This document shows, piece by piece, positions 2,237 to 62,550 of a stretch of 64,000 nt of DNA; the first letter of the stretch is position 1; each line of letters begins with the position of its first letter. The translations under genes and the position numbers were made by a program. Location: NCBI GenBank assembly GCA_934747255.1, contig CAKVGH010000001.1, forward strand, positions 18,023-82,022. The letters are read 5' to 3'. A model generated the notes under the pieces. It ran no database searches and was not told where the DNA came from. It saw only the letters and a list, made by a program, of their open reading frames with translations. The stretch is from an uncultured Clostridia bacterium (GTDB lineage Bacteria > Bacillota > Clostridia > Christensenellales > UBA1242).

Positions 2237-2412
2237 ATTATCTCCTTGACAATGTTTTATCTTATTTGCAAAAAACAATTAGTTGATTAACAAATCATAC
2301 CTATAAAATTATCTTTAATAATATATAATAATTTTAGTAATTATAACTTAATATCTTTATTATTGCAATAAAATTAAAATAAAAATCAGTGCTAATGCAC
2401 TGACTTAAAAAA

Positions 2413-2586
2413 CTATCTGTTTCTTTTTCTAGCTTCTTCGGACTTTAATTTTTTCTTAACGCTTGGTTTTTGATATGCTTCTTTTTTTCTTAAATCTCCG
2501 ATGATGCCGTCTTTTTGACATTTACGCTTAAATCTTTTGATTGCGCTATCAACTGATTCGTTTTCGCCAACTCTTACTAAACTCAA
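2413..2586 (-). CDS. rpsU: 30S ribosomal protein S21
   Basis: [27 protein letters not shown]...[16 protein letters not shown] is the canonical S21 sequence. The likely start is TTG at 2586, after AAGGTGGTG; the track start is GTG at 2598. Confidence 0.85.
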
Positions 2587-2961
2587 CTTACTCACCACCT
2601 TGTTTTATAATTTCAAGCACGATTATATCTAAAAAGCATTATTTTGTCAATGCTTTTGGGTCAATTTGCTTAAAAATTTGCACATTAAATTTTTAATGAA
2701 AAATAAAATTGTTTTATAACATATTTGTCGAGTTTTAATAGTAATTTTTGATAAACAATGCTTTTACTCTCTTTTAAGTTATTTAAGCCGAAAAACCTAA
2801 TAAAAACTCTAATTACTTCGGTATAATGTTTGTAAAAAAATGTGCATTTTTGCTAAAAAATAACATTAGTTATAACTTTTTAACTACTTTTGCAAAATGG
2901 GGTTTTTGCTATGCCAAAAGATGTATAATGTGCTTGTAAAAATTATGTAAGGAGAAAAATT

Positions 2962-3360
2962 ATGAGTAGAAATTCACAGGCAAAAGCCTTAATTAAAGAA
3001 CTTGCAATGCAAGCAAAGGAAAGATTAAAAAATTCAAATTATTCGCAAATTGATGGAAGTTTTGGTTACAAAAAGCCATTTGATAGACGAAATTATAAAG
3101 TCCTATCAAAAATGGATTGCAAAAAGCCAGATATTACAATAAAAATTATTAACGATACCGTAGATGAAGAAAATTTTAACCGTAGAGTATACGCTCTTTT
3201 ACAAGAAAACGAAGATATTTCTAACCCACTTAACAAATTGATTGATAAGGAAGCATTTGATTCTTTTAGTGAATTTGAACAGGAAAAGTACATTTTGGAA
3301 CTTGCCGACAAATACACCAAAGCAAGAGAAAACTATCTGCAACAATCATCAGGTTGTTAA
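2962..3360 (+). CDS. hypothetical small charged protein
   Basis: AAGGAGAAAAATT-ATG RBS. No recognisable family. Confidence 0.4.
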   Translation: MSRNSQAKALIKELAMQAKERLKNSNYSQIDGSFGYKKPFDRRNYKVLSKMDCKKPDITIKIINDTVDEENFNRRVYALLQENEDISNPLNKLIDKEAFDSFSEFEQEKYILELADKYTKARENYLQQSSGC

Positions 3361-5727: not shown

Positions 5728-6918
5728 TTAGTTTTGTGTAACTGTATTGTTTTGTGATGCAACTTTTCCTAAACCACCGCTTAATGTAACATTATTGAGT
5801 GAAACAGTTGCGTACGAAACTGCCGTTTGTCCTTCCTTGTAGGTTGAAACTTCTTCAACGCCGTAGCCATTTACACTACTAAAACTTCCGCCATTAACAG
5901 TTATGTTTAATGTTTTTTTGTAGCCTACTGCTGAATCAACAATCAATGCACTACCTGTTGGTTCTGCACCATTGCCGTTATATTTTGGAGCACTATATGT
6001 TCCAGTCGCTGTAACAGTACAATTATCTAAAACATAAGTACCACTCTTTGTATAAATTCCAGAGCCACCATTAAATGTGCAATTTGTAAAAGAATAGTTT
6101 GCATTAGATGCCAAATATACACCAAGATTTTCTTCTCCGCCTTCCATTACAACATTTTGGAAAGTGAATTTTGCTCCTTCACAAGAGCCATTTGTATAAA
6201 AGCCACCATAGTAACCATAAAGTTTTACATCTTGAACAGTAATGTCCAAATTATCTTTTCCATTTGCCATTAGTCCATAATAGCAACCATCTTTATCTGT
6301 TTTAGAGCCAATCGAGCCAGTTTTTTTACTGTCTTTAACTGTTGCTTTAATACCATATTCAAAGTAAACATTAGTTTTGTTTACCAATCCATAAGTACAA
6401 AGATTTAATTCTTCTTCGATATTATGTCCATTAAGGTCAAGCACAAAATCGTATGCTCTTAAAACACTCTTTACTGTGATATCACCATTGTATGCGCCAT
6501 CTGTGTAACCTGCAATATTTTCATAAAGCACGATTTCGTTAGCCACTTCAAAAGCATTAAGTAGTTCTGCTCTTGTTCTTACAGCAAGAGAGTATGTACC
6601 ACTATTATTGACAACTCCTTCGCCAGACAACTTACCTTGCACCATAAGTGTACCATTGTTTGTAATTGTTCCAGCATTTGTTAAAGTTACATCTTGTTTG
6701 ATAGTTACTATAACATCGCTAGCAATTTCCAACTTTTCACCACTAGGAATTTCCATGTTAGATACAACTACAATATCTTTGTTGTTCGCATTTGCTAATG
6801 CACCTTTTAATTCTTCAAATGTTGTTACTTGAAGCTTTGCATTTCCACAAGCAACCAAGCAAAGTGATGACAACACTAATACAAGTATGCTTGCAAACGC
6901 AAGAAATTTCTTTTTCAT
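5728..6918 (-). CDS. secreted lipoprotein with beta-helix-like N/G/T-rich repeats
   Basis: Signal peptide plus lipobox MKKKFLAFASILVLVLSSLCLVAC-GN; repetitive NxG/TxT-rich body; GGAGG RBS. Confidence 0.55.
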   Translation of the reverse strand: MKKKFLAFASILVLVLSSLCLVACGNAKLQVTTFEELKGALANANNKDIVVVSNMEIPSGEKLEIASDVIVTIKQDVTLTNAGTITNNGTLMVQGKLSGEGVVNNSGTYSLAVRTRAELLNAFEVANEIVLYENIAGYTDGAYNGDITVKSVLRAYDFVLDLNGHNIEEELNLCTYGLVNKTNVYFEYGIKATVKDSKKTGSIGSKTDKDGCYYGLMANGKDNLDITVQDVKLYGYYGGFYTNGSCEGAKFTFQNVVMEGGEENLGVYLASNANYSFTNCTFNGGSGIYTKSGTYVLDNCTVTATGTYSAPKYNGNGAEPTGSALIVDSAVGYKKTLNITVNGGSFSSVNGYGVEEVSTYKEGQTAVSYATVSLNNVTLSGGLGKVASQNNTVTQN

Positions 6919-9686: not shown

Positions 9687-9763
9687 GGTGGAATTGGCGC
9701 AGTTGGCAGCGCACAAGTTTGTGGCACTTGGGGTCAAGAGTTCGAGCCTCTTATTCCACCCCA
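9687..9763 (+). tRNA. tRNA-His(GUG) with G-1, CCA encoded
   Basis: G-1 plus GTGGAAT acceptor pairing with ATTCCAC-C73; anticodon loop TTGTGGC. Confidence 0.85.
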
Positions 9764-9963: not shown

Positions 9964-10302
9964 TTATAATGCTTCGTACTTTGGTTGAATTTGATTTTTC
10001 TTCAATTCCTTCAAAAACAGCGGAAAATTTTTTTCCAAAGTTCTATCAACAAACTCGTGATTTGAGATAATTGTTGCCTTGCCGTCCTTGATTACGAGTT
10101 GATTAAAGTATTTTTCGTAATACCATTTGTGAGTGTCCATAGAACTCGCAATCTTCTTTAAGCCGTGTCTGTCCATAACTTTTTGAAGCGATGGAAAATA
10201 TGTTACAACGATACTTCCGTCCGGCTTTCTTTCGTGGAACGCATAAAAATCGCCAGCCCCATAATAATTTATAAAAGTTTTAATTTGTTTGTTATTAAGC
10301 AT
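9964..10302 (-). CDS. hypothetical protein (accessory, next to the integrase)
   Basis: AAGGAGAAAT RBS. No family recognised. Confidence 0.35.
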   Translation of the reverse strand: MLNNKQIKTFINYYGAGDFYAFHERKPDGSIVVTYFPSLQKVMDRHGLKKIASSMDTHKWYYEKYFNQLVIKDGKATIISNHEFVDRTLEKNFPLFLKELKKNQIQPKYEAL

Positions 10303-10565
10303 AATAATATTTCTCCTTAACTTTATTTTATCACATAAGTTTTACCAATGCAATACCAACTTAAAAAATTGTGATGATGATTTTTGTAACGCTTGTTTTG
10401 TGTTTTCTAAATTTATTTCAAATATTTTTAATATGTTTTCCAAATTAAACTATCGCTATCTTTGCCAATTTTTTTATAAAAGCACAAAACATTTAATTAA
10501 AATTTCGAAAAACCTTTTAATTGCGTTTTTGCTAAAACTCGCTTTTTTTATAAAAAACTTAAATT

Positions 10566-11840
10566 TTATTGGTTTTTTCGCAATTTTTTTAACATTCTTT
10601 GATATTTTTTAATTTTTGTTATCAATTCTTCTTCAGTAATATTTTCCGATTCTGGTAAAATTTCTTGATTAATATTGTATGTTTGATTGATAAACGAAAA
10701 AGCATTTGAAACCATTTTAGCACTATTTATTTTGCTCTTAAAATCAAGATGCGAATATATATTTGCCGTAGTCGAAAAATTTGAATGTCCTAACCATTCT
10801 TGAATTTGCTTCATTGACACATTTTGTGCCACCATTATACTAGCGCAACTGTGTCTTAAATCATGAAATCGTATATGCTTCAAATTATACTTTTTTTGTA
10901 TATCGTTAAATCCATGTGTCAACCTGCTTGGCGTAATTAAATTGCCCATATTGTCCACACACACATACTCATTGTCAAAATTGTTATACTCATTTCCAAG
11001 CATTTTTTTGTTCCGCTCTATCTCTTGTTGTTTTTCTCTTAATATTGCATCAACCTGCGTAGTCAAAGGCAGTTCTCTATTACTCGATTTTGTTTTGAGA
11101 GTGTTTGATTTGTACAAAACATATTTTCCATTTATTTTTACTTGAATCACTTTATGTTCTATTGCTATTTTTTTATTTTCAAAATCTATCGCACTCCACT
11201 TTAACCCTAAAACTTCACTTCTCCTTAAACCATAAATAGCCGAGAGCATTATCGGCAACTTTAATTCTTCATTTTTTATTAAGTTAAACAAATCTTTCAT
11301 TTCATTTACATTATAGAACTGTCTTTTGATTAGGTTTTCCTTTGGCTTTTCAACTTTATTTATTGGGTTATAAACTAGCCAATCATTTTTAACTGCGTAC
11401 TCAACACATTGATGCAATGTAACATGAATATGTCTTATCGTATTTTTACAAATACCTTCTTGCAATAAATATGAATAAAAACTTTCTATATCAATAGGCA
11501 TAAGCGCTCCCAATGCAACACCTTTTTGTTTGAAGTAAGTAAAAATTTTTTTACCGTACTTTTGATAATTTTCAAAGGTCGATGGTTCTATTTTCATTTT
11601 CTTAATTCCCAACCAAATCATGTAATAATCTCCAAAATTTTCTCCCGCCATTTTGCTATAATTTTTGTTGGAATAATTAGAATTTAATATTAAAATTTCT
11701 TCCAATTTTTGTTTTAATATATGTTCTTCCGTACCTTCTTTTAGGTGCGTGCTTACCCACTTTTGTTTTTTTCTACCGTTTTCTAAAACTGTAAACACGG
11801 CATAGTATGTGCCATTCTTTTTTTGCAAACTACCTTTCAT
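10566..11840 (-). CDS. tyrosine site-specific recombinase (phage-integrase family)
   Basis: C-terminal catalytic block HDLRHSCASIMV...WLGHSNFSTTANIYSHL (R, HxxR, Y); N-terminal KKNGTYYAVF arm-type/SAM-like region. Start refined to MKGSLQKK (GGAGAG RBS). Confidence 0.85.
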   Translation of the reverse strand: MKGSLQKKNGTYYAVFTVLENGRKKQKWVSTHLKEGTEEHILKQKLEEILILNSNYSNKNYSKMAGENFGDYYMIWLGIKKMKIEPSTFENYQKYGKKIFTYFKQKGVALGALMPIDIESFYSYLLQEGICKNTIRHIHVTLHQCVEYAVKNDWLVYNPINKVEKPKENLIKRQFYNVNEMKDLFNLIKNEELKLPIMLSAIYGLRRSEVLGLKWSAIDFENKKIAIEHKVIQVKINGKYVLYKSNTLKTKSSNRELPLTTQVDAILREKQQEIERNKKMLGNEYNNFDNEYVCVDNMGNLITPSRLTHGFNDIQKKYNLKHIRFHDLRHSCASIMVAQNVSMKQIQEWLGHSNFSTTANIYSHLDFKSKINSAKMVSNAFSFINQTYNINQEILPESENITEEELITKIKKYQRMLKKLRKNQ

Positions 11841-11853
11841 CACTACTCTCCAT

Positions 11854-12054
11854 TTACTTTTTTTGATTATTAAAATACTCAAACACATCTTGTTTTGAAA
11901 TAAACATTTTATTTCCACAAAACATTGTTTTGAATTTTTGCTTTTTAATAAAATAGTATGCTTGACTTTTCGTCAGCCCAAAAAGTTCTTGAATGTGCCA
12001 TATTCTTAAAACATCTAAATTTTCAATTATTTCAAAATAATTCATTGATTTCAC
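11854..12054 (-). CDS. excisionase-like / MerR-type HTH DNA-binding protein
   Basis: 66 aa; the ELFGLTKSQAYYFIKK HTH resembles the excisionase-family DNA-binding domain; lies immediately upstream of, and coupled to, the integrase. Confidence 0.55.
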   Translation of the reverse strand: MKSMNYFEIIENLDVLRIWHIQELFGLTKSQAYYFIKKQKFKTMFCGNKMFISKQDVFEYFNNQKK

Positions 12055-12262
12055 CTCCCCCTAAACAAAATTTTACTTCTTTTATAAAATTTTCTTTAGT
12101 GCTTAAAACAGTTTTTAATACTCAAAATGATTATTATAAACCTACTGAAATTCAACACAAATTTCAAATCAAAAAATTCAATGACTTTTTTAGAAAATTA
12201 GAAAAAAATTAGATAAAACACATAAAAAACTCACTATTTTCTGTATTTTTTAACATTTCACC

Positions 12263-12289
12263 AAAGTTTGACAGCAACAGGCGCTTGGT
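12263..12289 (+). repeat. 27-bp inverted-repeat arm A (AAAGTTTGACAGCAACAGGCGCTTGGT), candidate recombination site
   Basis: Perfect reverse complement of 13718..13744. Flanks on both sides are unrelated. Confidence 0.9.
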
Positions 12290-12849
12290 TCACAAGTTCA
12301 AAAGCAGGAACATCTCAAAATATTGATGGTACATTTGGTACAATCAGTATCAATTATGCTGATGGAGAAGCTGCAGCTTGGTCAGCTCTTGATGTAACTG
12401 GCGGAAATGAAAAAGTAATGCCTGGTTCAAGCATTCAACTTAATGGTGGTACAGTTACAAATTCTAGTAATGTTGCTTCTTACATTAAAGTAAGCATTGT
12501 AAATCTAGTTGTAAAAATTGATGATACTGAATTAACTGAAGCTCAAATCAAAGGTTTATTTGGTGTTACTGAAGTTCCTGCATTTGCAGTAACAGCTGGT
12601 GATGGCGTTGAAGCAACATCAAAAGACGGTATTTACAAAGCTAACGCTGGTAAAACTGTTACTTTGAATAATATTAACTTGACTATCGCTAAAGCAGTTA
12701 AAAATGGTACTGCTTTGTCTGCAGATGGTTTAACAGTTAAAGATGGTTCAGTAATTAACTTTACATTCCAAATCAAAGTAGCTGCAGTTCAAGCTGATTA
12801 CATTACTCTTGACGAAGCAGAAACTGTACTTAATGGTTTATTTGCTTAA
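12268..12849 (+). CDS. TasA/camelysin-like fibre subunit body (T1) lacking start context and signal peptide; possible silent cassette
   Basis: Begins at LTATGAWFTSS, the motif that follows the signal peptide in the intact paralogs. The upstream frame has no ATG/GTG/TTG after a TAA and no RBS. Family motifs VMPGSS and VAAVQADYIT. Confidence 0.5.
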   Translation: MTATGAWFTSSKAGTSQNIDGTFGTISINYADGEAAAWSALDVTGGNEKVMPGSSIQLNGGTVTNSSNVASYIKVSIVNLVVKIDDTELTEAQIKGLFGVTEVPAFAVTAGDGVEATSKDGIYKANAGKTVTLNNINLTIAKAVKNGTALSADGLTVKDGSVINFTFQIKVAAVQADYITLDEAETVLNGLFA

Positions 12850-12860
12850 TAGAACATTGT

Positions 12861-12889
12861 AAAAGAACGGTTTAATTCCGTTCTTTTTG
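12861..12889 (+). terminator. terminator after T1 (AGAACGG-tttaatt-CCGTTCT + T-run)
   Basis: Hairpin plus T-run. Near-identical copy at 13137..13165. Confidence 0.7.
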
Positions 12890-12916
12890 TGTTTTTAATA
12901 AGGAAAAGGAGAAAGT

Positions 12917-13150
12917 ATGTTTCAAAAATACAAAGACATAAACGGTGATTCAAATGTTGTTGGATACGAAATTTTAACTGACGGAATAATTATAGAGTTT
13001 GGTGGACATTGGCGTTATTATTATAATTATTCTAGTGCAGGAAAGACTAACATTGAAATTATGAAGCGATTAGCACAACAAGGTGATGGTCTAAACTCTT
13101 TTGTAAAAAGAACAAACCTACCTTATGTATGGAAAAAAAGAACGGGTTAA
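12917..13150 (+). CDS. KTSC-domain-like small protein
   Basis: 77 aa. The VVGYEILTDGIIIEFGGHWRYYYNYSSAG...MKRLAQQGDGLNSFV pattern fits the KTSC fold. Strong AAGGAGAAAGT-ATG RBS. Confidence 0.45.
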   Translation: MFQKYKDINGDSNVVGYEILTDGIIIEFGGHWRYYYNYSSAGKTNIEIMKRLAQQGDGLNSFVKRTNLPYVWKKRTG

Positions 13151-13165
13151 TTCCGTTCTTTTTTT
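13137..13165. terminator. bidirectional terminator between the KTSC gene and T2
   Basis: A-run, then AGAACGG-gttaatt-CCGTTCT, then T-run. Overlaps the KTSC stop codon. Confidence 0.7.
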
Positions 13166-13187
13166 AACTTAATTATTGTATAATCAA

Positions 13188-13754
13188 TTAAGCTGCTTTT
13201 TGAAGATTAAGTGCTGCTGCAGCGGCTGCTTCATCAGCAATGTTTTCAGCTTGGATTGCTTTAACAGAGTAAGCACCAATTGTGAAACTAGCAACTGTTT
13301 GAACTGTTGTTGAATATTCAAGGCTTGTGTTAACTTGATAGAAACCCTCTCCATCTTTTGCACCAATACCAGTACCAGTAACTGCTAAATCAATTACATC
13401 AAATTCAGCTTCAGTTGATCCATTTGTAAGTTTTCTCATTTGAACATATTTTCCGTCAGCATTTACAAGGAATACATAAGCGTCAACAGATGCAATGCTT
13501 TCATCGGCTCCTTTCAATGTTGCTGTAACTTTGAATGTTGTACCATCTGCCTTAATGTAGTCACCAGGCATAACTTCATCATTAGCTACAGTTGTTGTTT
13601 TGTCGCTACGATATGCTTGAATTGTACCAGCTGTTGCCTCCAAACTAATGTCGATCCATCTATCTCTTAATGTAAATGAACCATTATTGTTGCCCTTAGC
13701 ATCGCCACTTGCTGTATACCAAGCGCCTGTTGCTGTCAAACTTTTATTTAACAT
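13188..13754 (-). CDS. TasA/camelysin-like fibre subunit body (T2) with only a 5-codon leader (MLNKS) and no RBS or signal peptide; possible silent cassette
   Basis: MLNKS-LTATGAWYTAS..., motifs VMPGDYIKA and VKAIQAENIADEAA. No Shine-Dalgarno before the ATG. Confidence 0.5.
   Translation of the reverse strand: MLNKSLTATGAWYTASGDAKGNNNGSFTLRDRWIDISLEATAGTIQAYRSDKTTTVANDEVMPGDYIKADGTTFKVTATLKGADESIASVDAYVFLVNADGKYVQMRKLTNGSTEAEFDVIDLAVTGTGIGAKDGEGFYQVNTSLEYSTTVQTVASFTIGAYSVKAIQAENIADEAAAAAALNLQKAA
13718..13744 (-). repeat. 27-bp inverted-repeat arm B
   Basis: Plus strand reads ACCAAGCGCCTGTTGCTGTCAAACTTT, the exact reverse complement of 12263..12289. Confidence 0.9.
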
Positions 13755-13893
13755 TGTTTTAATAGATTTTTTTGCAAATTTGAAAGGCTTATATTTTATA
13801 TATCTTATTACTAAAATAAACTCTTTTTATTGGCACTAATTCTTGTATATATAATACTAGTGTGTTAAAATTCGGGCAACTAGGAGTTATTTT

Positions 13894-15402
13894 ATGGAAA
13901 ATTTAAGTGACAAAAAAATTTTGAGAATGTTTGAAGATAATTCAAATGAAATTGAAAGATTGAGAGAACGAAATAAGACAAATTTGGCAAATATTCAAGA
14001 AGCGATTTCTGAATTACAAGGTTCAACAGTCGATCCCGAGCAGGTGGAGCAACTAGAACAAGATGTCGATTCATTGGAAGAAAGTGTCAACAAAATCAAA
14101 CAACAAATTAGTATACTTCAAGGCGAAGTAGACCCAACTTATAGCGGTAAAACTTACAGTGATTATCCTGCAGGTACAATATTGCAAACTTACGATAAAT
14201 TGGAAAGACAACTTGATATGAATAGTTCCACAGTGCTTACAAGTCCTAAAATTTATTTCTGTACCGAAGCGGGTTCAACTGGAAAAATTAGATTATACAC
14301 AAAATTTAAGCAAACCGTCACAGCCACAAGTGTGTTAATGAAAGTATATCTTAATGGGACGAAGATTGCAGAAGAAACATTTGAAATCATAATGGCAAAC
14401 AATGATGTGCATATTTTAAGAAATTATTTCGACCTAAATTTTAATGCAGACAGCAAAAGTAACTATTTTTACATAACACTAGAAAGTGAAGGAAGTGCAA
14501 ATAGTAATAATATCAATCTTAATGCTTTAACTTTGGAGTTATTTGCCCCAAATGCCGACATTATCACTCGTCCTTGTCCATTTGATGCAGTCTATGCTAA
14601 CGGTAAATATTACCTAACAAACTGCATTGATGGAACCGTAAAAACTGCCGTAATTGATGAAGAAAGTTTTACAAAGGTGGAAGATATTGCTTGGACAAGC
14701 ACAAATATAGTTGCTGAAGAATGTAAAACCACTTTTTCGATGACGATTTTCAATGAAACCTACAAGCCACTTGACCCTTACTATGTGAAACATAAAAATG
14801 ACAAATATTATTTTGGAACACTCGAAAATAATATTGAGTCGTGCGAAATGACTATGGTAATGAATGCGGACCCTGTTTTTTACTCAAACGCAAATCCACA
14901 TTTTATTGTTGCGAGATTTAACAATACATATATGACTCGTGGATATTATAATTTAGCAAATAGCACAAATCAAATGGGGTTTGCTACAGGCGGTAATGTT
15001 GGTAAATTATATATAAGAGTTGGTGGGTTAAAATACAACAACATCAATTATACTACAAAAATGACGCTAGCAAGTGCTATTATTACCGCTGATGGCGAAG
15101 TTCAATTTAGACCAGCACACACAGGTAGTAACAACTTTATTAGTCTTGGCTATGGTAGTGATGTTAGTGTGATTTTAACTTCTTTTACCAACTCAAGCAT
15201 TTTCTCTGTTGCGGTTTTTGTAAAAAGGTTTGATAAAATTATTAGATATGACATAAATGTACAGTATTCGACATACACCATAACAAAAACAACAGAAATC
15301 GGTTCTTACGAAAAAGTATTCTTTATGCCTAATAATGCTTATTTTGCCATAAAAAATAACCAACTATGTTACTACAAAATTCCACTAGAAGCCCGAGAGT
15401 AA
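13894..15402 (+). CDS. coiled-coil stalk + conserved beta-rich head protein (CC1), no signal peptide; paralog of 16644..18818
   Basis: N-terminal heptad region of about 85 aa. Blocks shared with CC2: KTYSDYPAGTILQ, LELFAPNADII, YYLTNCIDGTVKTA, TTEIGSYEKVF. GGAG RBS. Confidence 0.6.
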   Translation: MENLSDKKILRMFEDNSNEIERLRERNKTNLANIQEAISELQGSTVDPEQVEQLEQDVDSLEESVNKIKQQISILQGEVDPTYSGKTYSDYPAGTILQTYDKLERQLDMNSSTVLTSPKIYFCTEAGSTGKIRLYTKFKQTVTATSVLMKVYLNGTKIAEETFEIIMANNDVHILRNYFDLNFNADSKSNYFYITLESEGSANSNNINLNALTLELFAPNADIITRPCPFDAVYANGKYYLTNCIDGTVKTAVIDEESFTKVEDIAWTSTNIVAEECKTTFSMTIFNETYKPLDPYYVKHKNDKYYFGTLENNIESCEMTMVMNADPVFYSNANPHFIVARFNNTYMTRGYYNLANSTNQMGFATGGNVGKLYIRVGGLKYNNINYTTKMTLASAIITADGEVQFRPAHTGSNNFISLGYGSDVSVILTSFTNSSIFSVAVFVKRFDKIIRYDINVQYSTYTITKTTEIGSYEKVFFMPNNAYFAIKNNQLCYYKIPLEARE

Positions 15403-15409
15403 ATATATC

Positions 15410-15443
15410 AAAAACCCTAGCATAATTTTTGCTAGGTTTTTTT
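15410..15443. terminator. terminator between CC1 and T3
   Basis: A-run, CCTAGC-loop-GCTAGG, then TTTTTTT. Confidence 0.7.
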
Positions 15444-15493
15444 AATGATTTTCAATTTTTATAAACAACTTAATATTCCAAGTGAATTTAATT

Positions 15494-16189
15494 TTACATA
15501 CTATCAAGCAATGTTTTTAATTCAGTAAAGGCTTGTGTTGCATTAATGTTGTAATATTGAATAACTGCCACCTTGTATGTATTGCCATTTGAACCGATTG
15601 TGATTAAACCATATTTAGCGCCAAGGGCAGTCAACTTTTTGCCTTGAGCAGAGTTTCCAATGCTACTAGAAGATGTTGACCCATCTAGGCTGTATGTAGT
15701 GCCGTCCACTTGAACTGTTACGACTTCGCCTTTGATAGTTAAAGCATTGGCAGAGCCTTGTTGAATCATTTGTGCTTGTTTGGTTGTTGTCACTTCCGAC
15801 AATGCGCCGTTGGAAACTACATAGTATTTATTTGTAGAATCTAATTTAATCAAATACCAAACCTTGTCCGTATCGGCTGTGCCATCAGCATCATAAGTGA
15901 TTTTAATAGAACTGCTTGTAACTTTGTCGCCCGGCATAATTATGCCCGTACCACCCTTTCGGTCAGTAATAGCTTTGCCATTGGCATCTACATGTTGATA
16001 GCCACCAACATCTATCGCAACTTTACCAAATGTTGCGAACCTAAATTCAGTGGAAGAACCAGGAGTCGATGCACTACTGCTCGAAGTAAACCAAGCACCA
16101 GTGGTGGTTAAAATAACACTCGCTAAAAACAACAATGCAACGCAAAGTATCAAAAAAGATTTATTTGCTTTTGACTTTGATGTTCTCAT
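15494..16189 (-). CDS. TasA/camelysin-like secreted fibre subunit (T3), intact signal peptide
   Basis: MRTSKSKANKSFLILCVALLFLASVILTTTGAWFTSSSS (SipW-type signal pattern), IIMPGDKV, VAVIQYYNI. Start refined to the ATG after AAGGAGAG. Confidence 0.6.
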   Translation of the reverse strand: MRTSKSKANKSFLILCVALLFLASVILTTTGAWFTSSSSASTPGSSTEFRFATFGKVAIDVGGYQHVDANGKAITDRKGGTGIIMPGDKVTSSSIKITYDADGTADTDKVWYLIKLDSTNKYYVVSNGALSEVTTTKQAQMIQQGSANALTIKGEVVTVQVDGTTYSLDGSTSSSSIGNSAQGKKLTALGAKYGLITIGSNGNTYKVAVIQYYNINATQAFTELKTLLDSM

Positions 16190-16643
16190 CTGCTCTCCTT
16201 TTTGGTTCAAGCCCAATTCCATTTGTAAATATTATATATAATATTTATTTGTTTGTAAAACAAAAATAGCCCTAAATTAAAATTTGTAAACCATTTTTTT
16301 AGTTAAATTTTACTAAATTTTTGAAACAAAAAACAGTACCATCATTTGAATACACTTGATTTTTTTTATAAAAATACAAAGTTGTCTAATATCACACGCA
16401 TAGCATTTAATAATAGTTGTATATTTATAATATAAGTGAAACACTGTATCATTTTTCACAAACCTAGTTAATTAGATTTATTAAGGATTTTTTCTTAAAA
16501 CTTTTATTCTGCTGATAGAACTTATTGTAAAAATGTTGAAATTTGCTATTTATTGAAAGTTAGTATCAATAAAAATTTTGGCACAGATTATTGAAATTCT
16601 CGGTTTTTTATGCTTAAAATGTTAAAAATTTTAGGAGAAAATT

Positions 16644-18818
16644 ATGGAAGAAACAAAACTACAACGAATTTTAATGGAACTGCGAACCGACCTTGATATG
16701 CTACTTGAAAGGTATTACAGCGGAGCAACTAAGGAGATGCAAGAGAAATTGAGTAGTCTTTCCACATTGGTTACAGAACTTCAAACAAAAGTCGACACTC
16801 TTGATAGCGACAACACCACGAACAAAACCGATATAGAAAGCATTAAGGCAGATATAGTAAATATTAAGTCGCAGTGCGAAGAATTTACCACCAATATAAC
16901 AAATCTTCAATCATCAGTAACGCAAAATACAAGCGATATTGCCGATTTAACAACTAGGGTAACCACCGCCGAAACCGACATTGACGACCTGCAAACACTC
17001 ACTGCTTCGCACACCGAAACTCTTAATGACCATTGGGACAAAATGATGATTCTATTAGCAGAAGAAATAAGTATGACAACAAAAATGTCAAACGCCGAAG
17101 AACGAATTACTGCACTAGAAAATAGTTCCGCAACTGGCAATCCGGAAATCAGCAAAGCAGATATAACAGCCCTGCAAACACAGGTTGATGCACTTGAAAC
17201 CGAAGTCGATAGCCTATCAACCAAGGTTACCACAAACACGACTAACATTGCCGATTTGACCAGCAAAGTTAATACTAATACAACTAATATTGCCACCAAC
17301 ACCGCCGACATTGCCACACTAAAAACAACCACCGAAAATATCACATCAACTGTGAGTGAACTGCAAACAACTGTTGCAACTAACACACAAAATATCAGCA
17401 ATTTGCAATCAACGATTAGCACAAACACAACAAATATTCAAACCAACGCTGATAACATTAGTACATTGCAATCGCAGGTTAATACCAACACTGAAAATAT
17501 CGCAACAACCACCGCAAACATTGCTACTAACACAGCAAATATAGCAACAAATACGACCAATATTGCAACTCTTATGGCTTTTAGAGACAGTTTACTTACA
17601 CCAACAGACCCATTTTACAACCCAAAAACTTTTAGCGATTATCCAGCAGGTACAATTTTGCAAGGCTATGCAAAGTATAGTAGAAAATATCATTTAGTAA
17701 TGAATACTCTAAAGACTCCAACTGTCTTATTTACTGCAGAACTGGGTTCAAGTGGTAAAATATTTTTTAGAATAAAATTTTCATCAACTATAACATTCAA
17801 TGGCACTATTAACTTGTACCAAAATGGCAATTTAGTTTATCAAGAACAATACTCATTTAATAACACTAGTAAAGAATTCGATTTAGAAAGAACTGTCAAC
17901 GGTTTAACATTACAACAATCGAATTTATTTTACTTGCAAATAAACTCAAATAATACTCTTCAATATACATTAACATTCTATGAGTTACAATTGCTTGCTC
18001 CCAATGCAGAAATTGTTAATTCAATTTCACCTTTTAATGTTGAGTACTTTGAAAACAAATATTACATTAGCGATTGTAGTAGTGGAATAGCAAAAATTGC
18101 CGAAATAAATGTTACTGATATGCATAATATGGATAATTTGAGTTGGACCAATACAGGAATTGAATGTTTAACATACAAAACAACATTTGATACTAAAAAA
18201 TTTGCAGATACTTACGCGCCAAATAAAAGAATCGACTATTATCAAAAAGCAGATACAAAAATATACTTTGAGAATAAGTTAAATAATGAAATATCAAATA
18301 CGCAAGAATTTTGTAACCTTGATTGGATTCCAGTCAATGAATCTACTACTTACTTTACAGCTATTTTTAAGAATAGTTTTGCACTGACAAATGCCACATA
18401 TTACTCGATGTTTAATTATGTAAATTCTACAAATAAACCATATTATTTTACAACAGGGGCTCGTTATTTACAACCTTATAATGATTTCGTTTCAAGGAGA
18501 TTTATTATATATACAAAAGAGACTGGAGAGAATTTCATAAAAAGACTAGATTCATACACTAATTTTTCTCTAAATATTGGCTTAGGAACAAATATTCATT
18601 TTTATTATAAATCATATAATGATGATATAATTTTATTTGATTGCTATATGAAATATTATGATAAAATAATTAAAAAAACAATCTCATTTACAAATACTAA
18701 TGGGTTTTCTATAACTTCTTCTACGGAAATAGGTGCTTATGAAGAATATTTTGAAGGTGCAAACAATGATTACTTTGTTGTTAGAGCAGGCAAACTAGAA
18801 TATCACAAAAAACAATAA
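16644..18818 (+). CDS. long trimeric-type coiled-coil stalk + conserved beta-rich head protein (CC2), no signal peptide
   Basis: About 300 aa of heptads including runs of TNTxNIA (the IxxNTxx pattern). The head is paralogous to CC1: KTFSDYPAGTILQ, LQLLAPNAEIV, YYISDCSSGIAKIA, STEIGAYEEYF. Confidence 0.6.
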   Translation: MEETKLQRILMELRTDLDMLLERYYSGATKEMQEKLSSLSTLVTELQTKVDTLDSDNTTNKTDIESIKADIVNIKSQCEEFTTNITNLQSSVTQNTSDIADLTTRVTTAETDIDDLQTLTASHTETLNDHWDKMMILLAEEISMTTKMSNAEERITALENSSATGNPEISKADITALQTQVDALETEVDSLSTKVTTNTTNIADLTSKVNTNTTNIATNTADIATLKTTTENITSTVSELQTTVATNTQNISNLQSTISTNTTNIQTNADNISTLQSQVNTNTENIATTTANIATNTANIATNTTNIATLMAFRDSLLTPTDPFYNPKTFSDYPAGTILQGYAKYSRKYHLVMNTLKTPTVLFTAELGSSGKIFFRIKFSSTITFNGTINLYQNGNLVYQEQYSFNNTSKEFDLERTVNGLTLQQSNLFYLQINSNNTLQYTLTFYELQLLAPNAEIVNSISPFNVEYFENKYYISDCSSGIAKIAEINVTDMHNMDNLSWTNTGIECLTYKTTFDTKKFADTYAPNKRIDYYQKADTKIYFENKLNNEISNTQEFCNLDWIPVNESTTYFTAIFKNSFALTNATYYSMFNYVNSTNKPYYFTTGARYLQPYNDFVSRRFIIYTKETGENFIKRLDSYTNFSLNIGLGTNIHFYYKSYNDDIILFDCYMKYYDKIIKKTISFTNTNGFSITSSTEIGAYEEYFEGANNDYFVVRAGKLEYHKKQ

Positions 18819-18821
18819 AAC

Positions 18822-18851
18822 AAAAAACAACTCATAAAGAGTTGTTTTTTT
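18822..18851. terminator. bidirectional terminator between CC2 and T4
   Basis: A-run, CAACTC-ataaa-GAGTTG, then TTTTTTT. Confidence 0.75.
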
Positions 18852-18876
18852 GTACATAATACTAATTACCTAATAA

Positions 18877-19515
18877 TTAAGCAATTACAATTGCTTCAAG
18901 CAATGGCTTTGCAGCTTCAGCTGTCAAGTTGTTAGCTTGGATTGTCTTAACTTGGATACCTTGTCCTTGGAAGTTAAGAGAGAATGTACCAGTTACATCG
19001 CCATAATTTAGGCTTGTTTTAACTGTGTATACATCGCCTGCAATATCAAATTTATCAACAGCACCTGTTACAGCACGATTACCTTCTGTAGCAAGAACGA
19101 TTGCATCGCCTGCATCAGAATATGTTACTTCTGACCAATTTGCGCCACCATCTACTGATACAATGTAGTAGAAAGCTACTTTAGAATTAGCTGTAATTGT
19201 TGCCTTTGCACCTTGTGTAAATGTTACTTTATCGCCAGGAAGTACAACATAAGCTCCTGCTTCATTTGTAGCGCAGTCTTCTGAACCTACACCTTTTGGA
19301 CTTGTTGTTACTTTAACTGTGTTAGTTGCACCTGCATTTACTGTAAGTGTCATCCAATCACTCATAACAAAGTCAACTTTTCCACCTTGGCCATCTTGTT
19401 TAGATGAACTTGTGTACCAAGCACCTGTTGCTGTCAAAATCATGCTTAAGCAAAGCAAGATGCTTAAAAGAACGATAGCAACTGTTGATTTTCTCATTTT
19501 CTTTGAGTTTACCAT
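18877..19515 (-). CDS. TasA/camelysin-like secreted fibre subunit (T4), intact RBS and signal peptide
   Basis: AAGGAGAAAAACAA-ATG; MVNSKKMRKSTVAIVLLSILLCLSMILTATGAWYTSSSK; VVLPGDKVTF; VKTIQANNLTAEAA. Confidence 0.65.
   Translation of the reverse strand: MVNSKKMRKSTVAIVLLSILLCLSMILTATGAWYTSSSKQDGQGGKVDFVMSDWMTLTVNAGATNTVKVTTSPKGVGSEDCATNEAGAYVVLPGDKVTFTQGAKATITANSKVAFYYIVSVDGGANWSEVTYSDAGDAIVLATEGNRAVTGAVDKFDIAGDVYTVKTSLNYGDVTGTFSLNFQGQGIQVKTIQANNLTAEAAKPLLEAIVIA
19405..19438 (-). repeat. third copy of the candidate crossover site, inside intact T4
   Basis: The T4 coding strand reads TTTGACAGCAACAGGtGCTTGGTaCACAAGTTCA. This matches 12267..12300 at 32 of 34 nt, and matches 22 of the last 23 nt (TTTGAC...GGT) of the 27-bp core. 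Confidence 0.85.
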
Positions 19516-19844
19516 TTTGTTTTTCTCCTTTTTTTATTTTATTTTATTTACAACCTTTCGTTATAAACATTCATAGTATAATAAACGGCAAAATTAAAGG
19601 CAAATATTTTTAACCACTTTTTCAAAATTTTTTTATTTTTTTTGTTTTTTTTGGTTTGTCGCAATTTGTCAAAGGTTTTTGGGCAAAAATGTTTTAACAT
19701 TTTTTTGATATATAATGTTTTAATCTATATAATATATATTTATATATAATAATACAGCCTTTTGAAAGTTTTTTGGGCAAAATTTTGCAAGTATCAAAAA
19801 AGACAAGGCAAAAAATTTTATTTGTGGTAAAATGTCTTAAACAA

Positions 19845-59748: not shown

Positions 59749-60930
59749 TTAAATAGTGTAAACACTTTCGTTTGAATCAATATAATAGTTATAGCCATTG
59801 GCTTTTATGTATATTTTACTTCCAGCCAAATATGTTGATTTTGGCAAAGTAATACCACAAACTTCACAACTTGTATCTATCCAAGTATTATCAATTCGTA
59901 TGGCATAAGTTTTAGCATTTGGCGTAGCGTCCCAACTTATAAAGACATTGTCGCCGTCTATTACAACTTTGATATTTGTTACACTACTTAATTTTTCTGT
60001 TTTAGTGTAAGATACCACATCTGTAAACGCACTTGTTATGTAATTGCCTGTACCTATCGCTTGTACTTTGAATGAATAAACACCCGCATTACTTACAAGA
60101 GAACTGAAATCGTAAGAATTTTTTGTTGTACTAAACTCTTGACTATTGTTAACTAAAATTTTATAGCCAGAACAATTTTTAACCGCCTTCCAAGACAAGG
60201 TTAAACTTGACTGGTCAAATCTCAAATTTGTTGGAGCGGACAAATTTAATGTTTTTTGATATGTTACAGCATTACTATATGCACTATCAAAGTAGTTTTC
60301 ACTACCAATTGCTTTTACGGCAAAACTAAAACTTGTTTTTGTCATAGTTCCAATATAGCCACTTACATCAAACGCATTTGCCGAAGTTGTAACTATGTAA
60401 TTACCGCTATCATAGACATTGTAGCCAGTAGAATTACTAACCGTTGTCCAAGTTAAATACATATCATCTATTGCCAAGTTTGGTGTTGATAGTTGATGTT
60501 TATTAACAAACTCTTGTGGCTCTGTTGATAATGAATCGCTAAAATCTTCTCCACCAATACATTTACAATAGTAGTAGTATGATTTTGCATCTACAAACAA
60601 GTCAGTTACATCAAGACTATATTTTTCATAAGGTTTTGTTTCATCGTAATCTTTTGTCAAAAATTCGGTGTATTCATAAATATCTTGTGGAGATGCTCCA
60701 TCGTAAATATAAAACGCATAGTAGGAAGCAAAAAGGTTATTGTTTGCTACTAACATTTTTTTTTCGCCGTCAAATTGTAATGCCACGGTTGGTGTTTCTA
60801 GTCTAGGTTTCGAGTCGTCCTTTTTGAAAAAAACAAAAACGCAAAGAACGGCAACAACCGTTCCCACAACTATAAAGGTAAGCAATGCTATAAGCCACCA
60901 TAGGTTTTTAGTGTCTTTTTGTTCTTCCAT
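59749..60930 (-). CDS. N-terminally membrane-anchored protein with four FN3-like repeats
   Basis: TM helix WWLIALLTFIVVGTVVAVLCVFVFF. Repeats of about 90 aa carry L(T/S)W...SGY patterns (LTWTTVSNSTGYNVYD, LSWKAVKNCSGYKILVN, ISWDATPNAKTYAIRID). The ATG lies 2 nt after the upstream stop. Confidence 0.55.
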   Translation of the reverse strand: MEEQKDTKNLWWLIALLTFIVVGTVVAVLCVFVFFKKDDSKPRLETPTVALQFDGEKKMLVANNNLFASYYAFYIYDGASPQDIYEYTEFLTKDYDETKPYEKYSLDVTDLFVDAKSYYYYCKCIGGEDFSDSLSTEPQEFVNKHQLSTPNLAIDDMYLTWTTVSNSTGYNVYDSGNYIVTTSANAFDVSGYIGTMTKTSFSFAVKAIGSENYFDSAYSNAVTYQKTLNLSAPTNLRFDQSSLTLSWKAVKNCSGYKILVNNSQEFSTTKNSYDFSSLVSNAGVYSFKVQAIGTGNYITSAFTDVVSYTKTEKLSSVTNIKVVIDGDNVFISWDATPNAKTYAIRIDNTWIDTSCEVCGITLPKSTYLAGSKIYIKANGYNYYIDSNESVYTI

Positions 60931-60932
60931 TA

Positions 60933-61676
60933 TTAACCCCAATTATTTCTAAAACTCTCTTTCCACGAAGTTGGTGCTGTTTCCCAAGTTGATTCAATCG
61001 CTTGGAAGCCACCTTCGCCTGCTTGCAAACATTCAACCATCATATGCATAGTTACTTGTTTACCTTGAAAACTATTATCTATTTTGGTACTAACTTTTAT
61101 GCTATCAGTTACTTCTACCGACTGATTAGCAAGTAATGTGCTTTTTAGATAATAATATCCATCAGCACCTTCAATCCAGTTGTTTGTCCACTCTGGGTTA
61201 GTACTATTTATTGAAAACATATTTGCGTAATAATTTTCCCCAATAGTGCTGTAAAATTTTACTCTAATAAATACTTGTGCGGTACTGCCTTCTATATCAA
61301 TACTTTTAATAACAAACTTGATTTTTAGCGAGTCACCTGGCATAACATTTTCTTTCTTCTCTGGATGCTCGTCAAACTCAATCAACTCATAGTTTGCTTG
61401 CAAATCAATGGCAATATCCATAGGTGATGTTGGTTTTGGAAATACAAATAGCAAAAGTGTGCCAGCGATAATTACTGACATTAAAATCGCAAAAATAGAC
61501 CAAATCAATTTTTTATTGCTCTTGTTGATTATTATTTCTGGATTATCAAGCAAAACATCTTCGGTCAAAATCACCTTTTGTGGCATATTATCTGGTGATT
61601 TTTGTTTTATATCTACCGATTGTGAGAGTTTACTCAAATCTGGCTTAATATCAGAAATTTTGTTATTTTCTTCCAT
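60933..61676 (-). CDS. TasA/camelysin-like domain protein with a cytoplasmic N-tail and TM anchor (T5)
   Basis: TM helix LIWSIFAILMSVIIAGTLLLFVF, NVMPGDSLKIKF, and C-terminal VECLQAGEGGFQAIESTWETAPTSW paralleling T6. GGAGG RBS. Confidence 0.5.
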   Translation of the reverse strand: MEENNKISDIKPDLSKLSQSVDIKQKSPDNMPQKVILTEDVLLDNPEIIINKSNKKLIWSIFAILMSVIIAGTLLLFVFPKPTSPMDIAIDLQANYELIEFDEHPEKKENVMPGDSLKIKFVIKSIDIEGSTAQVFIRVKFYSTIGENYYANMFSINSTNPEWTNNWIEGADGYYYLKSTLLANQSVEVTDSIKVSTKIDNSFQGKQVTMHMMVECLQAGEGGFQAIESTWETAPTSWKESFRNNWG

Positions 61677-61902
61677 AATCAACCTCCATTTAGTAATATT
61701 TTACAAAATTAGCACACATAAATCAACAATTTTTACGCCATATACTAATATTTATTATTATTATTTTAATCAATTATATAAAAATTATAAATTGTAAAAT
61801 TTTGGGTTACGACAAATTTTTTTGCTTTGAATAGTTTTGATTAAACTTCACAAACTACTTTTGATTAAGCCGAAAGGCTAAAAATAAAATAAGGAGAGAA
61901 GT

Positions 61903-62550
61903 ATGGAAAAGAAAGAACAAACAAAACCACAAGGCGAAAGAGTTCAACCAAAAGTAACCCTTAAAAGAAGAAAAAGTTCTGGTAGTACTATTGCAATCAT
62001 TGCATTGTCAATACTCCTAGGCGTTTCTGTAATCTTTGGCGTTACGGCTGCATTCTTTACCGCAAATGCTGGCGGAACTGGTAACATTACTTTGGGTAAT
62101 CCTGTAAACATCAACTTGACACAAGGTGGTGCTTCCGTTTCCTCACTAACTTTTGCTGGAACAGCAATGCCGGGAACTGTTTATGACCAAGTTATTGGTG
62201 TAAGCGTTCCTACAGATTCTTCTGACTGTGTTGTTAGAGGAAAATTAACTATCGCTGACGCCGATGGTGCTACTACACCAGTCGAAGCCGTTACAAACGC
62301 TTCTTGGGCTAAAGGTGACGATGATTACTATTACTACAATGGTATTCTTAAATCAAATGACACTGCTGGTTTCGTAACATCACTCACTGTTCCAAAATCA
62401 CTAACTAACACTGCTGCAAACAAGGTTTACACTATTTCAGTTCAAATAGAAGCAATCCAATTTGCAAATGGTGCTGCTAGCGAAGTTTGGACAACTGCTC
62501 CAAGTGCTTGGACAACTGCTTATGGTTCAGGTACAGTATCAGGAAGCTAA
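61903..62550 (+). CDS. TasA/camelysin-like secreted fibre subunit (T6)
   Basis: Signal region IAIIALSILLGVSVIFGVTAAFFTANAGG, AMPGTVYDQ, VQIEAIQFANGAASEVWTTAPSAW. AAGGAGAGAAGT-ATG RBS. Confidence 0.6.
   Translation: MEKKEQTKPQGERVQPKVTLKRRKSSGSTIAIIALSILLGVSVIFGVTAAFFTANAGGTGNITLGNPVNINLTQGGASVSSLTFAGTAMPGTVYDQVIGVSVPTDSSDCVVRGKLTIADADGATTPVEAVTNASWAKGDDDYYYYNGILKSNDTAGFVTSLTVPKSLTNTAANKVYTISVQIEAIQFANGAASEVWTTAPSAWTTAYGSGTVSGS

Follow-up and report, generated by a model that had tools for sequence, protein, structure and literature searches.

Gene content of the locus

The 64,000-nucleotide (nt) stretch of DNA analysed here (hereafter the window) belongs to an uncultured Clostridia bacterium of the Christensenellales (UBA1242; assembly GCA_934747255.1, contig CAKVGH010000001.1, positions 18,023 to 82,022) and carries an array of seven open reading frames (ORFs): four TasA-like genes (T1 to T4), a short KTSC-like ORF, and two genes for coiled-coil stalk-and-head proteins (CC1 and CC2), which we consider here as a candidate DNA-inversion shufflon. 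The coordinates and strands given for these seven ORFs in the original prediction, made from the DNA alone, are all borne out (Table 1), as is the observation that T1, T2, CC1 and CC2 lack a signal peptide and that T3 and T4 carry hydrophobic ones. Among the features that had been overlooked are inverted DNA repeats within the array and a pair of adjacent genes (10566-12054) coding for a tyrosine recombinase and a small excisionase-like (Xis-like) protein, hereafter int-xis.

Table 1. Features of the locus, in window coordinates (aa, amino acids; sites sA, sB and sC belong to slots A, B and C)
Feature	Position	Strand	Description
Tyrosine recombinase gene, phage-integrase type	10566-11918	-	ORF of 450 aa; candidate invertase
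Small HTH_17/excisionase-like (Xis-like) gene	11854-12054	-	Directly upstream of the recombinase gene
Site sA	12263-12300	+	Core 12267-12289; promoterless slot A; repeats 94% complementary; breakpoint in rearranged contigs
T1 body cassette	12268-12849	+	193-aa form in slot A; ORF start coincides with the site; predicted silent in the window arrangement
Terminator-like hairpin 3' of T1 body	12861-12887	+	Second copy, 96% identical, at 13136-13163
77-aa KTSC-like ORF	12917-13150	+	Moves with the T1/T2 segment; orientation flipped with segment 1 in contig L021
T2 body cassette in slot B	13188-13754	-	Stub encodes MLNKS; no Shine-Dalgarno sequence, no signal peptide
Site sB	13707-13744	-	Core 13718-13740; slot B
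CC1 promoter region	13830-13893	+	TTGGCAC box, N6, -35-like TTGTAT, 17 nt, TAAAAT
CC1, 502 aa	13894-15402	+	Coiled coil, jelly-roll, beta-propeller-like head; no signal peptide
Terminator-like hairpin, CC1/T3 interval	15416-15436		Bidirectional
T3, complete TasA-like gene	15494-16222	-	Own promoter-like site, Shine-Dalgarno sequence and signal peptide
CC2 promoter region	16578-16643	+	TTGGCAC box, N6, TTGAAA, 18 nt, TAAAAT, Shine-Dalgarno sequence
CC2, 724 aa	16644-18818	+	CC1 paralog with a coiled-coil stalk of ~320 aa
Terminator-like hairpin, CC2/T4 body interval	18822-18850	-	
T4 ORF	18877-19515	-	Body cassette 18877-19404, predicted to be the expressed one in the window arrangement
Site sC	19405-19438	-	Core 19416-19438, with GGT instead of GGC; slot C
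Fixed expression site, slot C	19439-19603	-	Promoter-like TTGCCT-17-TATACT, AAGGAG, ATG at 19515, signal peptide MVNSKKMRKSTVAIVLLSILLCLSMI

Three short inverted sites at the 5' ends of T1, T2 and T4

A repeat search shows that the 5' ends of T1 (+), T2 (-) and T4 (-) have in common a block of 32-34 nt, 94% identical in inverted orientation. Within it lies a 23-nt core, TTTGACAGCAACAGGYGCTTGGT, which has exactly three matches in the 64 kb against 0 expected and falls within the codons for LTATGAW; no match to the exact core was found in JGI metagenome contigs. Throughout the block the codons of the three genes are identical save for GGC versus GGT, synonymous positions being conserved as well. 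This conservation of DNA is not due to the protein sequence, because T3 encodes the closely similar LTTTGAW(FTSS) with different codons, the corresponding stretch (16090-16114) being only 72-80% identical to the sites.

Among the three site positions, a promoter-like site, a Shine-Dalgarno sequence and a signal peptide are found together at the T4 position only, i.e., in slot C, which adjoins comEC and whose signal peptide comprises 26-33 residues. The T1 and T2 ORFs begin at the recombination block, with neither a Shine-Dalgarno sequence nor a promoter-like site nor a signal peptide, and slots A and B are therefore probably silent. T3 has its own promoter-like site (TTTACA-17-TATAAT, 16259-16231). 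Across the window as a whole, the promoter scan did not exceed chance, with 52 sites against 49.5 expected.

The T leader, including ACTATGAATGTTTATAAC after the -10 element, together with the DNA coding for the signal peptide, is near-identical between the window (19439-19600) and contigs L018 (5224-5405) and L017 (13588-13780) of other species, the mature T proteins of these species being only ~30-55% identical. In L018 the expression site and the core of the window are kept almost base for base. Such conservation across species suggests selection on the DNA or RNA itself.

Natural contigs carry the four permitted arrangements

Public contigs carrying T chimeras (L numbers), which come from different samples and from several assembly sources (ENA NODE, k141 and scaffold contigs, and Logan), were aligned to the window, and combinations of T bodies with slots were taken from protein clusters (P numbers) at 90% identity. 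A search for T1 homologs retrieves P0001, in which the N-terminus of the T2 slot, MLNKSLTATGAW, is fused to the T1 body. The T1 body occurs behind the slot A stub (193 aa), behind the MLNKS stub of slot B (198 aa; P0001) and behind the slot C signal peptide (219 aa; P0004, L022), and the T2 body likewise in slot A (183 aa; P0010, P0012, L021), slot B (188 aa) and slot C (209 aa; P0009, P0013, L008). The T4 body is found in slot A (186 aa; P0007, L020, and a cut copy in L008) and in slot C (212 aa). A protein with the T4 body in slot B, a combination that topology forbids, is not on record, and neither is any recombinant T3.

The co-linear blocks of these contigs switch orientation exactly at sA, sB and sC. 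With two segments and three sites, topology permits only four states, each of which matches an observed contig. Reading the bodies in slots A, B and C in order, these are T1, T2, T4 (state 1: the window, L001, L002 and L004, with the shorter L003, L005 and L006 showing the same local order); T2, T1, T4 (state 2: L021); T4, T2, T1 (state 3: L022); and T4, T1, T2 (state 4: L008, L009, L013, L014 and L015). A further contig, L020, on which the int-xis pair is followed by the T4 body and an inverted CC2, is compatible with state 3 or state 4.

Contigs L021 (state 2) and L008 (state 4) are 100% identical over 1084 nt, both being ~1.2-1.7% off the window there. As the two agree in sequence yet differ in state, they appear to represent one strain lineage in two states, which argues for a recent switch within that lineage. 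The single-nucleotide polymorphism (SNP) GGC/GGT of the core goes with the body: on the contigs that show it, slot C reads GGT where it holds the T4 body and GGC where it holds that of T2, the two states compared belonging to different lineages. Since the SNP stays with the body, the crossover would lie within the first ~15 nt of the core, T-TTGACAGCAACAGG.

Two peculiarities were seen among these contigs. L003 and L005 encode a slot-B variant of 181 aa (P0011) in which 21 nt over the core are deleted (MLNKSF-TASGD), and the core search finds no copy of sB on either; a deletion of this type should lock the slot-B site. L015 departs from the window inside comEC and runs on (2400-3260 of the contig) into a gene for a 271-aa protein with a prepilin N_methyl domain, which reflects either a strain-specific insertion or a chimeric contig.

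A probable three-site, four-state inversion shufflon

We regard it as very likely that the locus is a three-site, four-state DNA-inversion shufflon on the chromosome of a spore-forming gut Clostridia bacterium, working in the following way. Slot C would supply one promoter, one ribosome-binding site and one signal peptide, and the same core would stand, inverted, at the 5' ends of two cassettes without promoter or signal peptide. Inversion between sites would then exchange the whole mature part of the protein, T4, T1 or T2 being exported behind one and the same signal peptide and the two remaining bodies being stored silent. T1 and T2 would lack signal peptides because they are silent cassettes. 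T3, CC1, CC2 and the KTSC-like ORF would ride as passengers in the invertible DNA; all have terminators of their own, and T3, CC1 and CC2 have promoter-like sites as well. T3 would escape exchange because its site has drifted at synonymous positions. The most likely effect of the switch would be antigenic or phage-receptor variation.

The inversions are most likely catalysed by the tyrosine recombinase encoded next to the array, together with its Xis-like partner. The recombinase matches Pfam Phage_integrase (1e-26) and Phage_int_SAM_5 as well as the PHROG integrase family phrog_1 (4e-61), is ~40% identical to integrases of gut phage contigs, and is called in other assemblies as a protein of 424 aa starting with MKGSLQKK; the Xis-like gene matches Pfam HTH_17 at 4.7e-5, under the gathering score. 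Both genes stand beside slot A in every contig reaching that far. No recombinase was found within 10 kb of the loci in L007, L017, L023, L024, L026 and L027, and L018 ends before the recombinase side.

T proteins as divergent members of the camelysin/TasA family

T1 to T4 are paralogs of 23-29% identity with the common motifs TGAW[FY]T, PG[DS] and V..[IV]Q, the bodies of T1, T2 and T4 being mutually only 23-30% identical. They have no direct sequence match in Pfam, NCBIfam or PDB, and no match to an NCBIfam signal-peptide model. A profile built from the CC-linked T proteins retrieves 196 relatives, few of them with PF12389 (Peptidase_M73, camelysin/TasA), a model matched by 18 of 95 aligned family members at E <= 0.01 (best ~1e-6). 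An hhalign comparison of the CC-linked T proteins with the PF12389-positive relatives gives a probability of 99.9% (E = 1.4e-33, 177 columns). The term TasA-like, as originally applied, holds at the level of the sequence family through these relatives, T1 to T4 themselves lying below the PF12389 threshold, and we read the T proteins as divergent secreted proteins of the camelysin/TasA family, probably subunits of a surface fibre or matrix.

The signal peptide is strongly conserved across the T family (MV[NK]SKKMSKS..AIV.L..LL.LS..L..TGAWFT), the mature parts being divergent, and occurs with its AW[FY]T[SD] junction in T3, T4 and 117 of 117 relatives. The AlphaFold2 (AF2) model of T4 is beta-rich, with a predicted local distance difference test (pLDDT) score of 74 and low confidence for the N-terminal residues 31-51; its Foldseek matches are immunoglobulin-like and non-significant, and were rejected.

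CC proteins and their pairing with T genes

The C-terminal region common to CC1 and CC2, one of the points of the original prediction, extends over 431 aa at 32% identity (E = 6e-46) and contains all four sequence blocks quoted for it. The AF2 model of CC1 (pLDDT 83.5, predicted template modelling score 0.78) would comprise coiled-coil helices (~4-75), a jelly-roll (~98-219) and a beta-propeller-like head (~230-495). Foldseek matches of this model in PDB are generic propellers (sialidase, prolyl oligopeptidase, WD40) and, for the jelly-roll in part, Ena1B, Ena2A, Cry domain III and BcsB, the partial matches to Ena1B (7a02) and Ena2A (9i0y) being weak (target-length-normalised template modelling (TM) score 0.52-0.59, E ~2e-3) and the fold generic; matches among viral models are partial and of low TM-score. 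GXX collagen repeats are absent from the CC sequence. CC proteins form a small family (139 clusters at 50% identity among 1.84 billion representatives), in which a hydrophobic N-terminus is missing from 136 of the 137 full-length members. That they are an uncharacterised partner is upheld by the absence of any Pfam domain from the head in 79 members, and Pfam and PHROG matches of CC1 and CC2 fall in the coiled coil only.

The association of CC with T genes, likewise predicted, is found at every chromosomal lineage inspected: at every chromosomal CC locus with enough flank, a convergent T gene lies downstream of CC, directly or past one gene. Two such pairs are present in the window, two in L018 and two in L007, with others in L017/L023 (with a Fic gene between), L024, L026 and L027, and a GTDB scan added only two further CC loci. 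In several species the CC-T pair lies upstream of comEC-holA-spoIIE, the CC proteins being only 36-57% identical. The intervening gene of L017, a related species, codes for a Fic-domain protein (11964-13010).

Inverted repeats were also seen at two of these other loci. In L027 a repeat of 101 nt, 96% identical (11633-11733 and 12811-12911), brackets two tail-to-tail T bodies beside a CC gene, one with a truncated and one with a complete signal peptide, and contig L029 ends inside this repeat. In L007 a repeat of 145 nt, 92% identical (6349-6493 and 12188-12332), consists of two complete T 5' ends, with leader and identical signal peptide, and encloses a pair of CC genes together with an ORF of 164 aa. 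Exchange of cassettes at this conserved 5' end of T genes may recur across the T family.

The CC genes of several species share an upstream TTGGCAC-N6-TTG(A/T) box ~50-85 nt 5' of the start codon. TTGGCAC itself recurs 5' of the CC genes of L007, L018 and L027, and variants close to it stand in L017, L019 and L026. The window holds four occurrences of TGGCAC-N6-TTG against 0.42 expected, two of them at CC1 and CC2 (13830-13845 and 16578-16593). The second half of the motif suits the -35 hexamer of sigma-A, a -10 element following after 17-18 nt, and the box is probably an activator site joined to that hexamer. A sigma-54 (-24 box) interpretation was rejected, the spacing to TTG being one base too long and the -12 GC missing. 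T genes have a different conserved sigma-A-like leader.

A homolog of the CC head occurs in a phage. Over its whole length (~440 aa) the head of CC1 shares 30% identity (E = 7e-59) with the C-terminal part of the protein P0021, whose N-terminus is an OB domain of the Phage_base_V family scoring 24.1 bits (cutoff 23.8). L025, a contig of 95.5 kb with 29% GC, similar to the window, carries at 10001-11812 a contractile-tail phage-like baseplate module, of which P0021 is the central spike protein. A putative hub gene lies on one side of the P0021 gene and a weak gp25-like gene on the other; nearby are weak sheath, gp19-tube and Tail_P2_I matches, all below the Pfam cutoffs, and a precomputed T4_baseplate match. 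No T gene lies within 10 kb of the P0021 gene. CC1 has no tblastn match in 50,697 GenBank phage genomes, and a pattern-based search of IMG/VR found no relative of the CC profile or of P0021. With regard to a phage origin, which the original prediction had named as a point against itself, a head homolog is thus present in a phage baseplate spike, and phage structural genes are absent from the flanks of the window locus and of its chromosomal relatives, the neighbours of CC1 and CC2 being T genes, comEC, holA and transfer RNA (tRNA) genes. We read the head as a common surface-interacting domain, placed at the tip of a spike in the phage and on a coiled-coil stalk in the host.

The stalk-and-head architecture of CC, its pairing with T genes and the use of its head on a phage spike suggest that CC may interact with the cell surface or with the fibre. 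It is possible, if rather doubtful, that the CC-T pair is an undescribed surface appendage module, made of a TasA-like fibre exported by Sec and SipW and a trimeric, signal-less CC stalk and head, whose head was captured by a contractile-tail phage as the tip of its baseplate spike for targeting, the shufflon being the host's counter-move against phage adsorption or immunoglobulin A.

Competing explanations

Several observations weigh against the shufflon or parts of it. The differing states stem from different samples, and expression from slots A and B is judged from the missing Shine-Dalgarno sequences and promoters alone. T1 to T4 have no PF12389 match at E <= 0.1, the AF2 model of T4 has no Foldseek match in PDB at E <= 0.001 and none to TasA, and the scan of window ORFs yielded neither sipW nor another signal peptidase gene. 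The recombinase has the full length of a phage-type integrase and an Xis-like neighbour and lies beside a tRNA-His gene; the int-xis pair could be the relic of an integrated element instead of a dedicated invertase. Moreover, the invertible-looking T-cassette pair of L027 has no recombinase within 10 kb, which indicates that some exchange in the T family may use a trans-acting recombinase or homologous recombination.

The last two points lead to the alternative that survives best, which we nevertheless consider unlikely: that the inversions are real and carried out by RecA-type recombination or by a recombinase encoded elsewhere, int-xis being the remnant of an element at tRNA-His. An ordinary phage-type integrase near that gene (9688-9763) would fit, as would the longer repeats of L027 and L007, with no recombinase in the available flank. 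However, the sites here are identical over no more than 23-34 nt, a short stretch for homologous recombination to work on efficiently; the core SNP is consistent with travel linked to the body, which would place the crossover in the first ~15 nt of the core; T3, which has the peptide motif without the DNA core, is never exchanged; int-xis is fixed beside slot A; and the repeat search found no phage attachment (att)-like direct repeat of the tRNA-His end bounding the cluster. The tRNA-His gene was located by ARAGORN, the Rfam tRNA model being silent at its gathering threshold.

It is improbable that the cluster is a degraded prophage host-range module like Mu G, P1 C or p15B Min, with CC as a tail-fibre-like protein. 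The head homolog in a phage baseplate spike, the adjoining int and xis genes and the matches of the KTSC-like ORF to phage virion protein domains speak for such an origin, but the shuffled genes are T genes, of the Sec-type secreted camelysin/TasA family, and not CC genes. The lack of phage structural genes in the window and in chromosomal relatives and of CC1 matches in GenBank phages and IMG/VR also stands against it, and the same chromosomal position in several species with such divergent CC proteins indicates long vertical residence.

Still less probable is the export route originally proposed, in which T1, T2 and the CC proteins would function without signal peptides as subunits of a new appendage, leaving the cell by piggy-backing or being assembled onto the spore surface in the mother cell. 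The CC family does lack hydrophobic N-termini, sporulation genes are present, and the CC1 jelly-roll has its weak matches to Ena1B and Ena2A. Against this, T1 and T2 start exactly at the core without a Shine-Dalgarno sequence, natural populations contain the bodies of both joined to the T4 signal peptide, all other T family members retrieved have a signal peptide, and the Ena matches span a generic jelly-roll only. The CC promoters are moreover sigma-A-like, no sigma-E or sigma-K consensus being evident, though no dedicated scan was made. For T1 and T2 the signal-less appendage is largely refuted, both being better described as promoterless, 5'-truncated shufflon cassettes, and the shufflon replaces what had been deduced from the missing signal peptides; the underlying observation, the T family, the CC partner and the co-occurrence of the two stand.

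Finally, that the rearrangements are metagenome assembly chimeras at short repeats is scarcely credible: L004, L022 and L029 do end at or near repeats, but identical junctions are seen again and again, in 20 contigs or more, whose origin in different assembly sources and samples makes an artefact very unlikely, L008 and other long contigs run across both junctions with flanks that agree, and only the four topologically allowed states occur.

Other features of the window

The KTSC label of the 77-aa ORF is not sustained by Pfam (no match at E <= 0.1); the ORF matches a domain of large phage proteins in PHROGs (phrog_17428 and phrog_24656, E ~1e-15). Two hairpin copies, 96% identical, bracket it (12861-12888 and 13136-13163; AAAAGAACGG..CCGTTCTTTT), so that it sits between two terminators, with no obvious promoter. 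No Rfam family was found within the locus. The window is chromosomal, also carrying comEC, holA, secA, nrdD and tilS, and its SpoIIE, YabQ and GerA/B/C-like genes agree with the earlier assignment to a spore-former.

A second TasA-like cluster, overlooked in the original prediction, lies at 59749-62550. It consists of a T-family gene whose product has a signal peptide (61903-62550, +; T profile E = 3e-17), a gene for a membrane-anchored T-like protein (60933-61682, -; T profile E = 2e-9) and an adjacent gene for a 397-aa protein with a hydrophobic N-terminal segment and no Pfam match (59749-60942, -); neither a CC gene nor an inverted repeat is present there. A second ORF of 450 aa (62626-63978), considered as a second integrase, was rejected, as it codes for an unrelated multi-pass membrane protein.

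Significance and comparison with known systems

The locus provides an example of programmed inversion, validated in populations, from an uncultured gut anaerobe of Gram-positive type, and would bring the extracellular fibre or matrix proteins of the camelysin/TasA family into the range of cassette switching. Its design is unusual in that one export signal would serve three unrelated-looking mature proteins. It also calls for caution, as paralogs that seem to lack a signal peptide may, next to a recombinase, be silent cassettes. The CC proteins are a conserved, unannotated partner family whose head, found on a phage spike, leads to a concrete hypothesis of phage-receptor or surface variation in a poorly known lineage common in the human gut.

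The closest logic is that of the Mycoplasma pulmonis vsa locus, in which a promoter and 5' coding region are joined by site-specific inversion to silent genes, with the tyrosine recombinase HvsR encoded nearby (PMC2268961). Both systems have silent genes without the parts of an expression site, inversion inside the coding region and a nearby tyrosine recombinase. However, the constant part of vsa measures 714 nt of coding sequence and belongs to lipoproteins of a wall-less pathogen, whereas here it is ~100 nt long (the signal peptide) and precedes secreted proteins of the camelysin/TasA family; unlike vsa, the present locus has only three cassettes and unrelated CC genes inside the invertible DNA. 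In the R64/IncI1 shufflon, Rci swaps the C-terminal tips of the PilV adhesin behind a long constant N-terminal part. Several short sites in both orientations, alternative forms of a surface-filament protein and a single tyrosine recombinase are features of both, but here the entire mature protein would be replaced, the signal peptide alone being constant, and the system is chromosomal and resides in an organism of Gram-positive type.

Catalogued gene-altering inversions (hsdS, phage tail, SusC/RagA, pilin and others) likewise use inverted repeats in coding sequence beside a recombinase and yield alternative alleles (PMC9881135); the main text of that catalogue contains 0 occurrences of camelysin, TasA or switches at a signal peptide or its junction, and a full-text literature search returned no report in which shufflons or DNA inversion are tied to TasA, camelysin or SipW. 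With Bacillus TasA and camelysin the T proteins have in common the N-terminal signal peptide, a motif of the type A-[WY]-F-[TS]-[DS], PGD and a C-terminal A-[IV]-Q; unlike Bacillus TasA, those of the window remain under the Pfam threshold, have no partner of the tapA-sipW operon type in the window and no structural match to solved TasA. We know of no Bacillus counterpart to the pairing of TasA-like genes with CC. Among contractile-tail phage spikes (Phage_base_V, gp5-gpV type), the protein P0021 resembles CC in having a C-terminal part homologous to the CC head over the whole length of that head and a helical or coiled segment before it, whereas the CC proteins of the window have a coiled-coil N-terminus instead of an OB-fold, are chromosomal, have no adjacent tail genes and are paired with T genes. 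The mechanism is of a known kind, and what is new is the family of the cargo, the position of the site at the junction of the signal peptide, by which the whole mature protein would be swapped, and the conserved CC partner.

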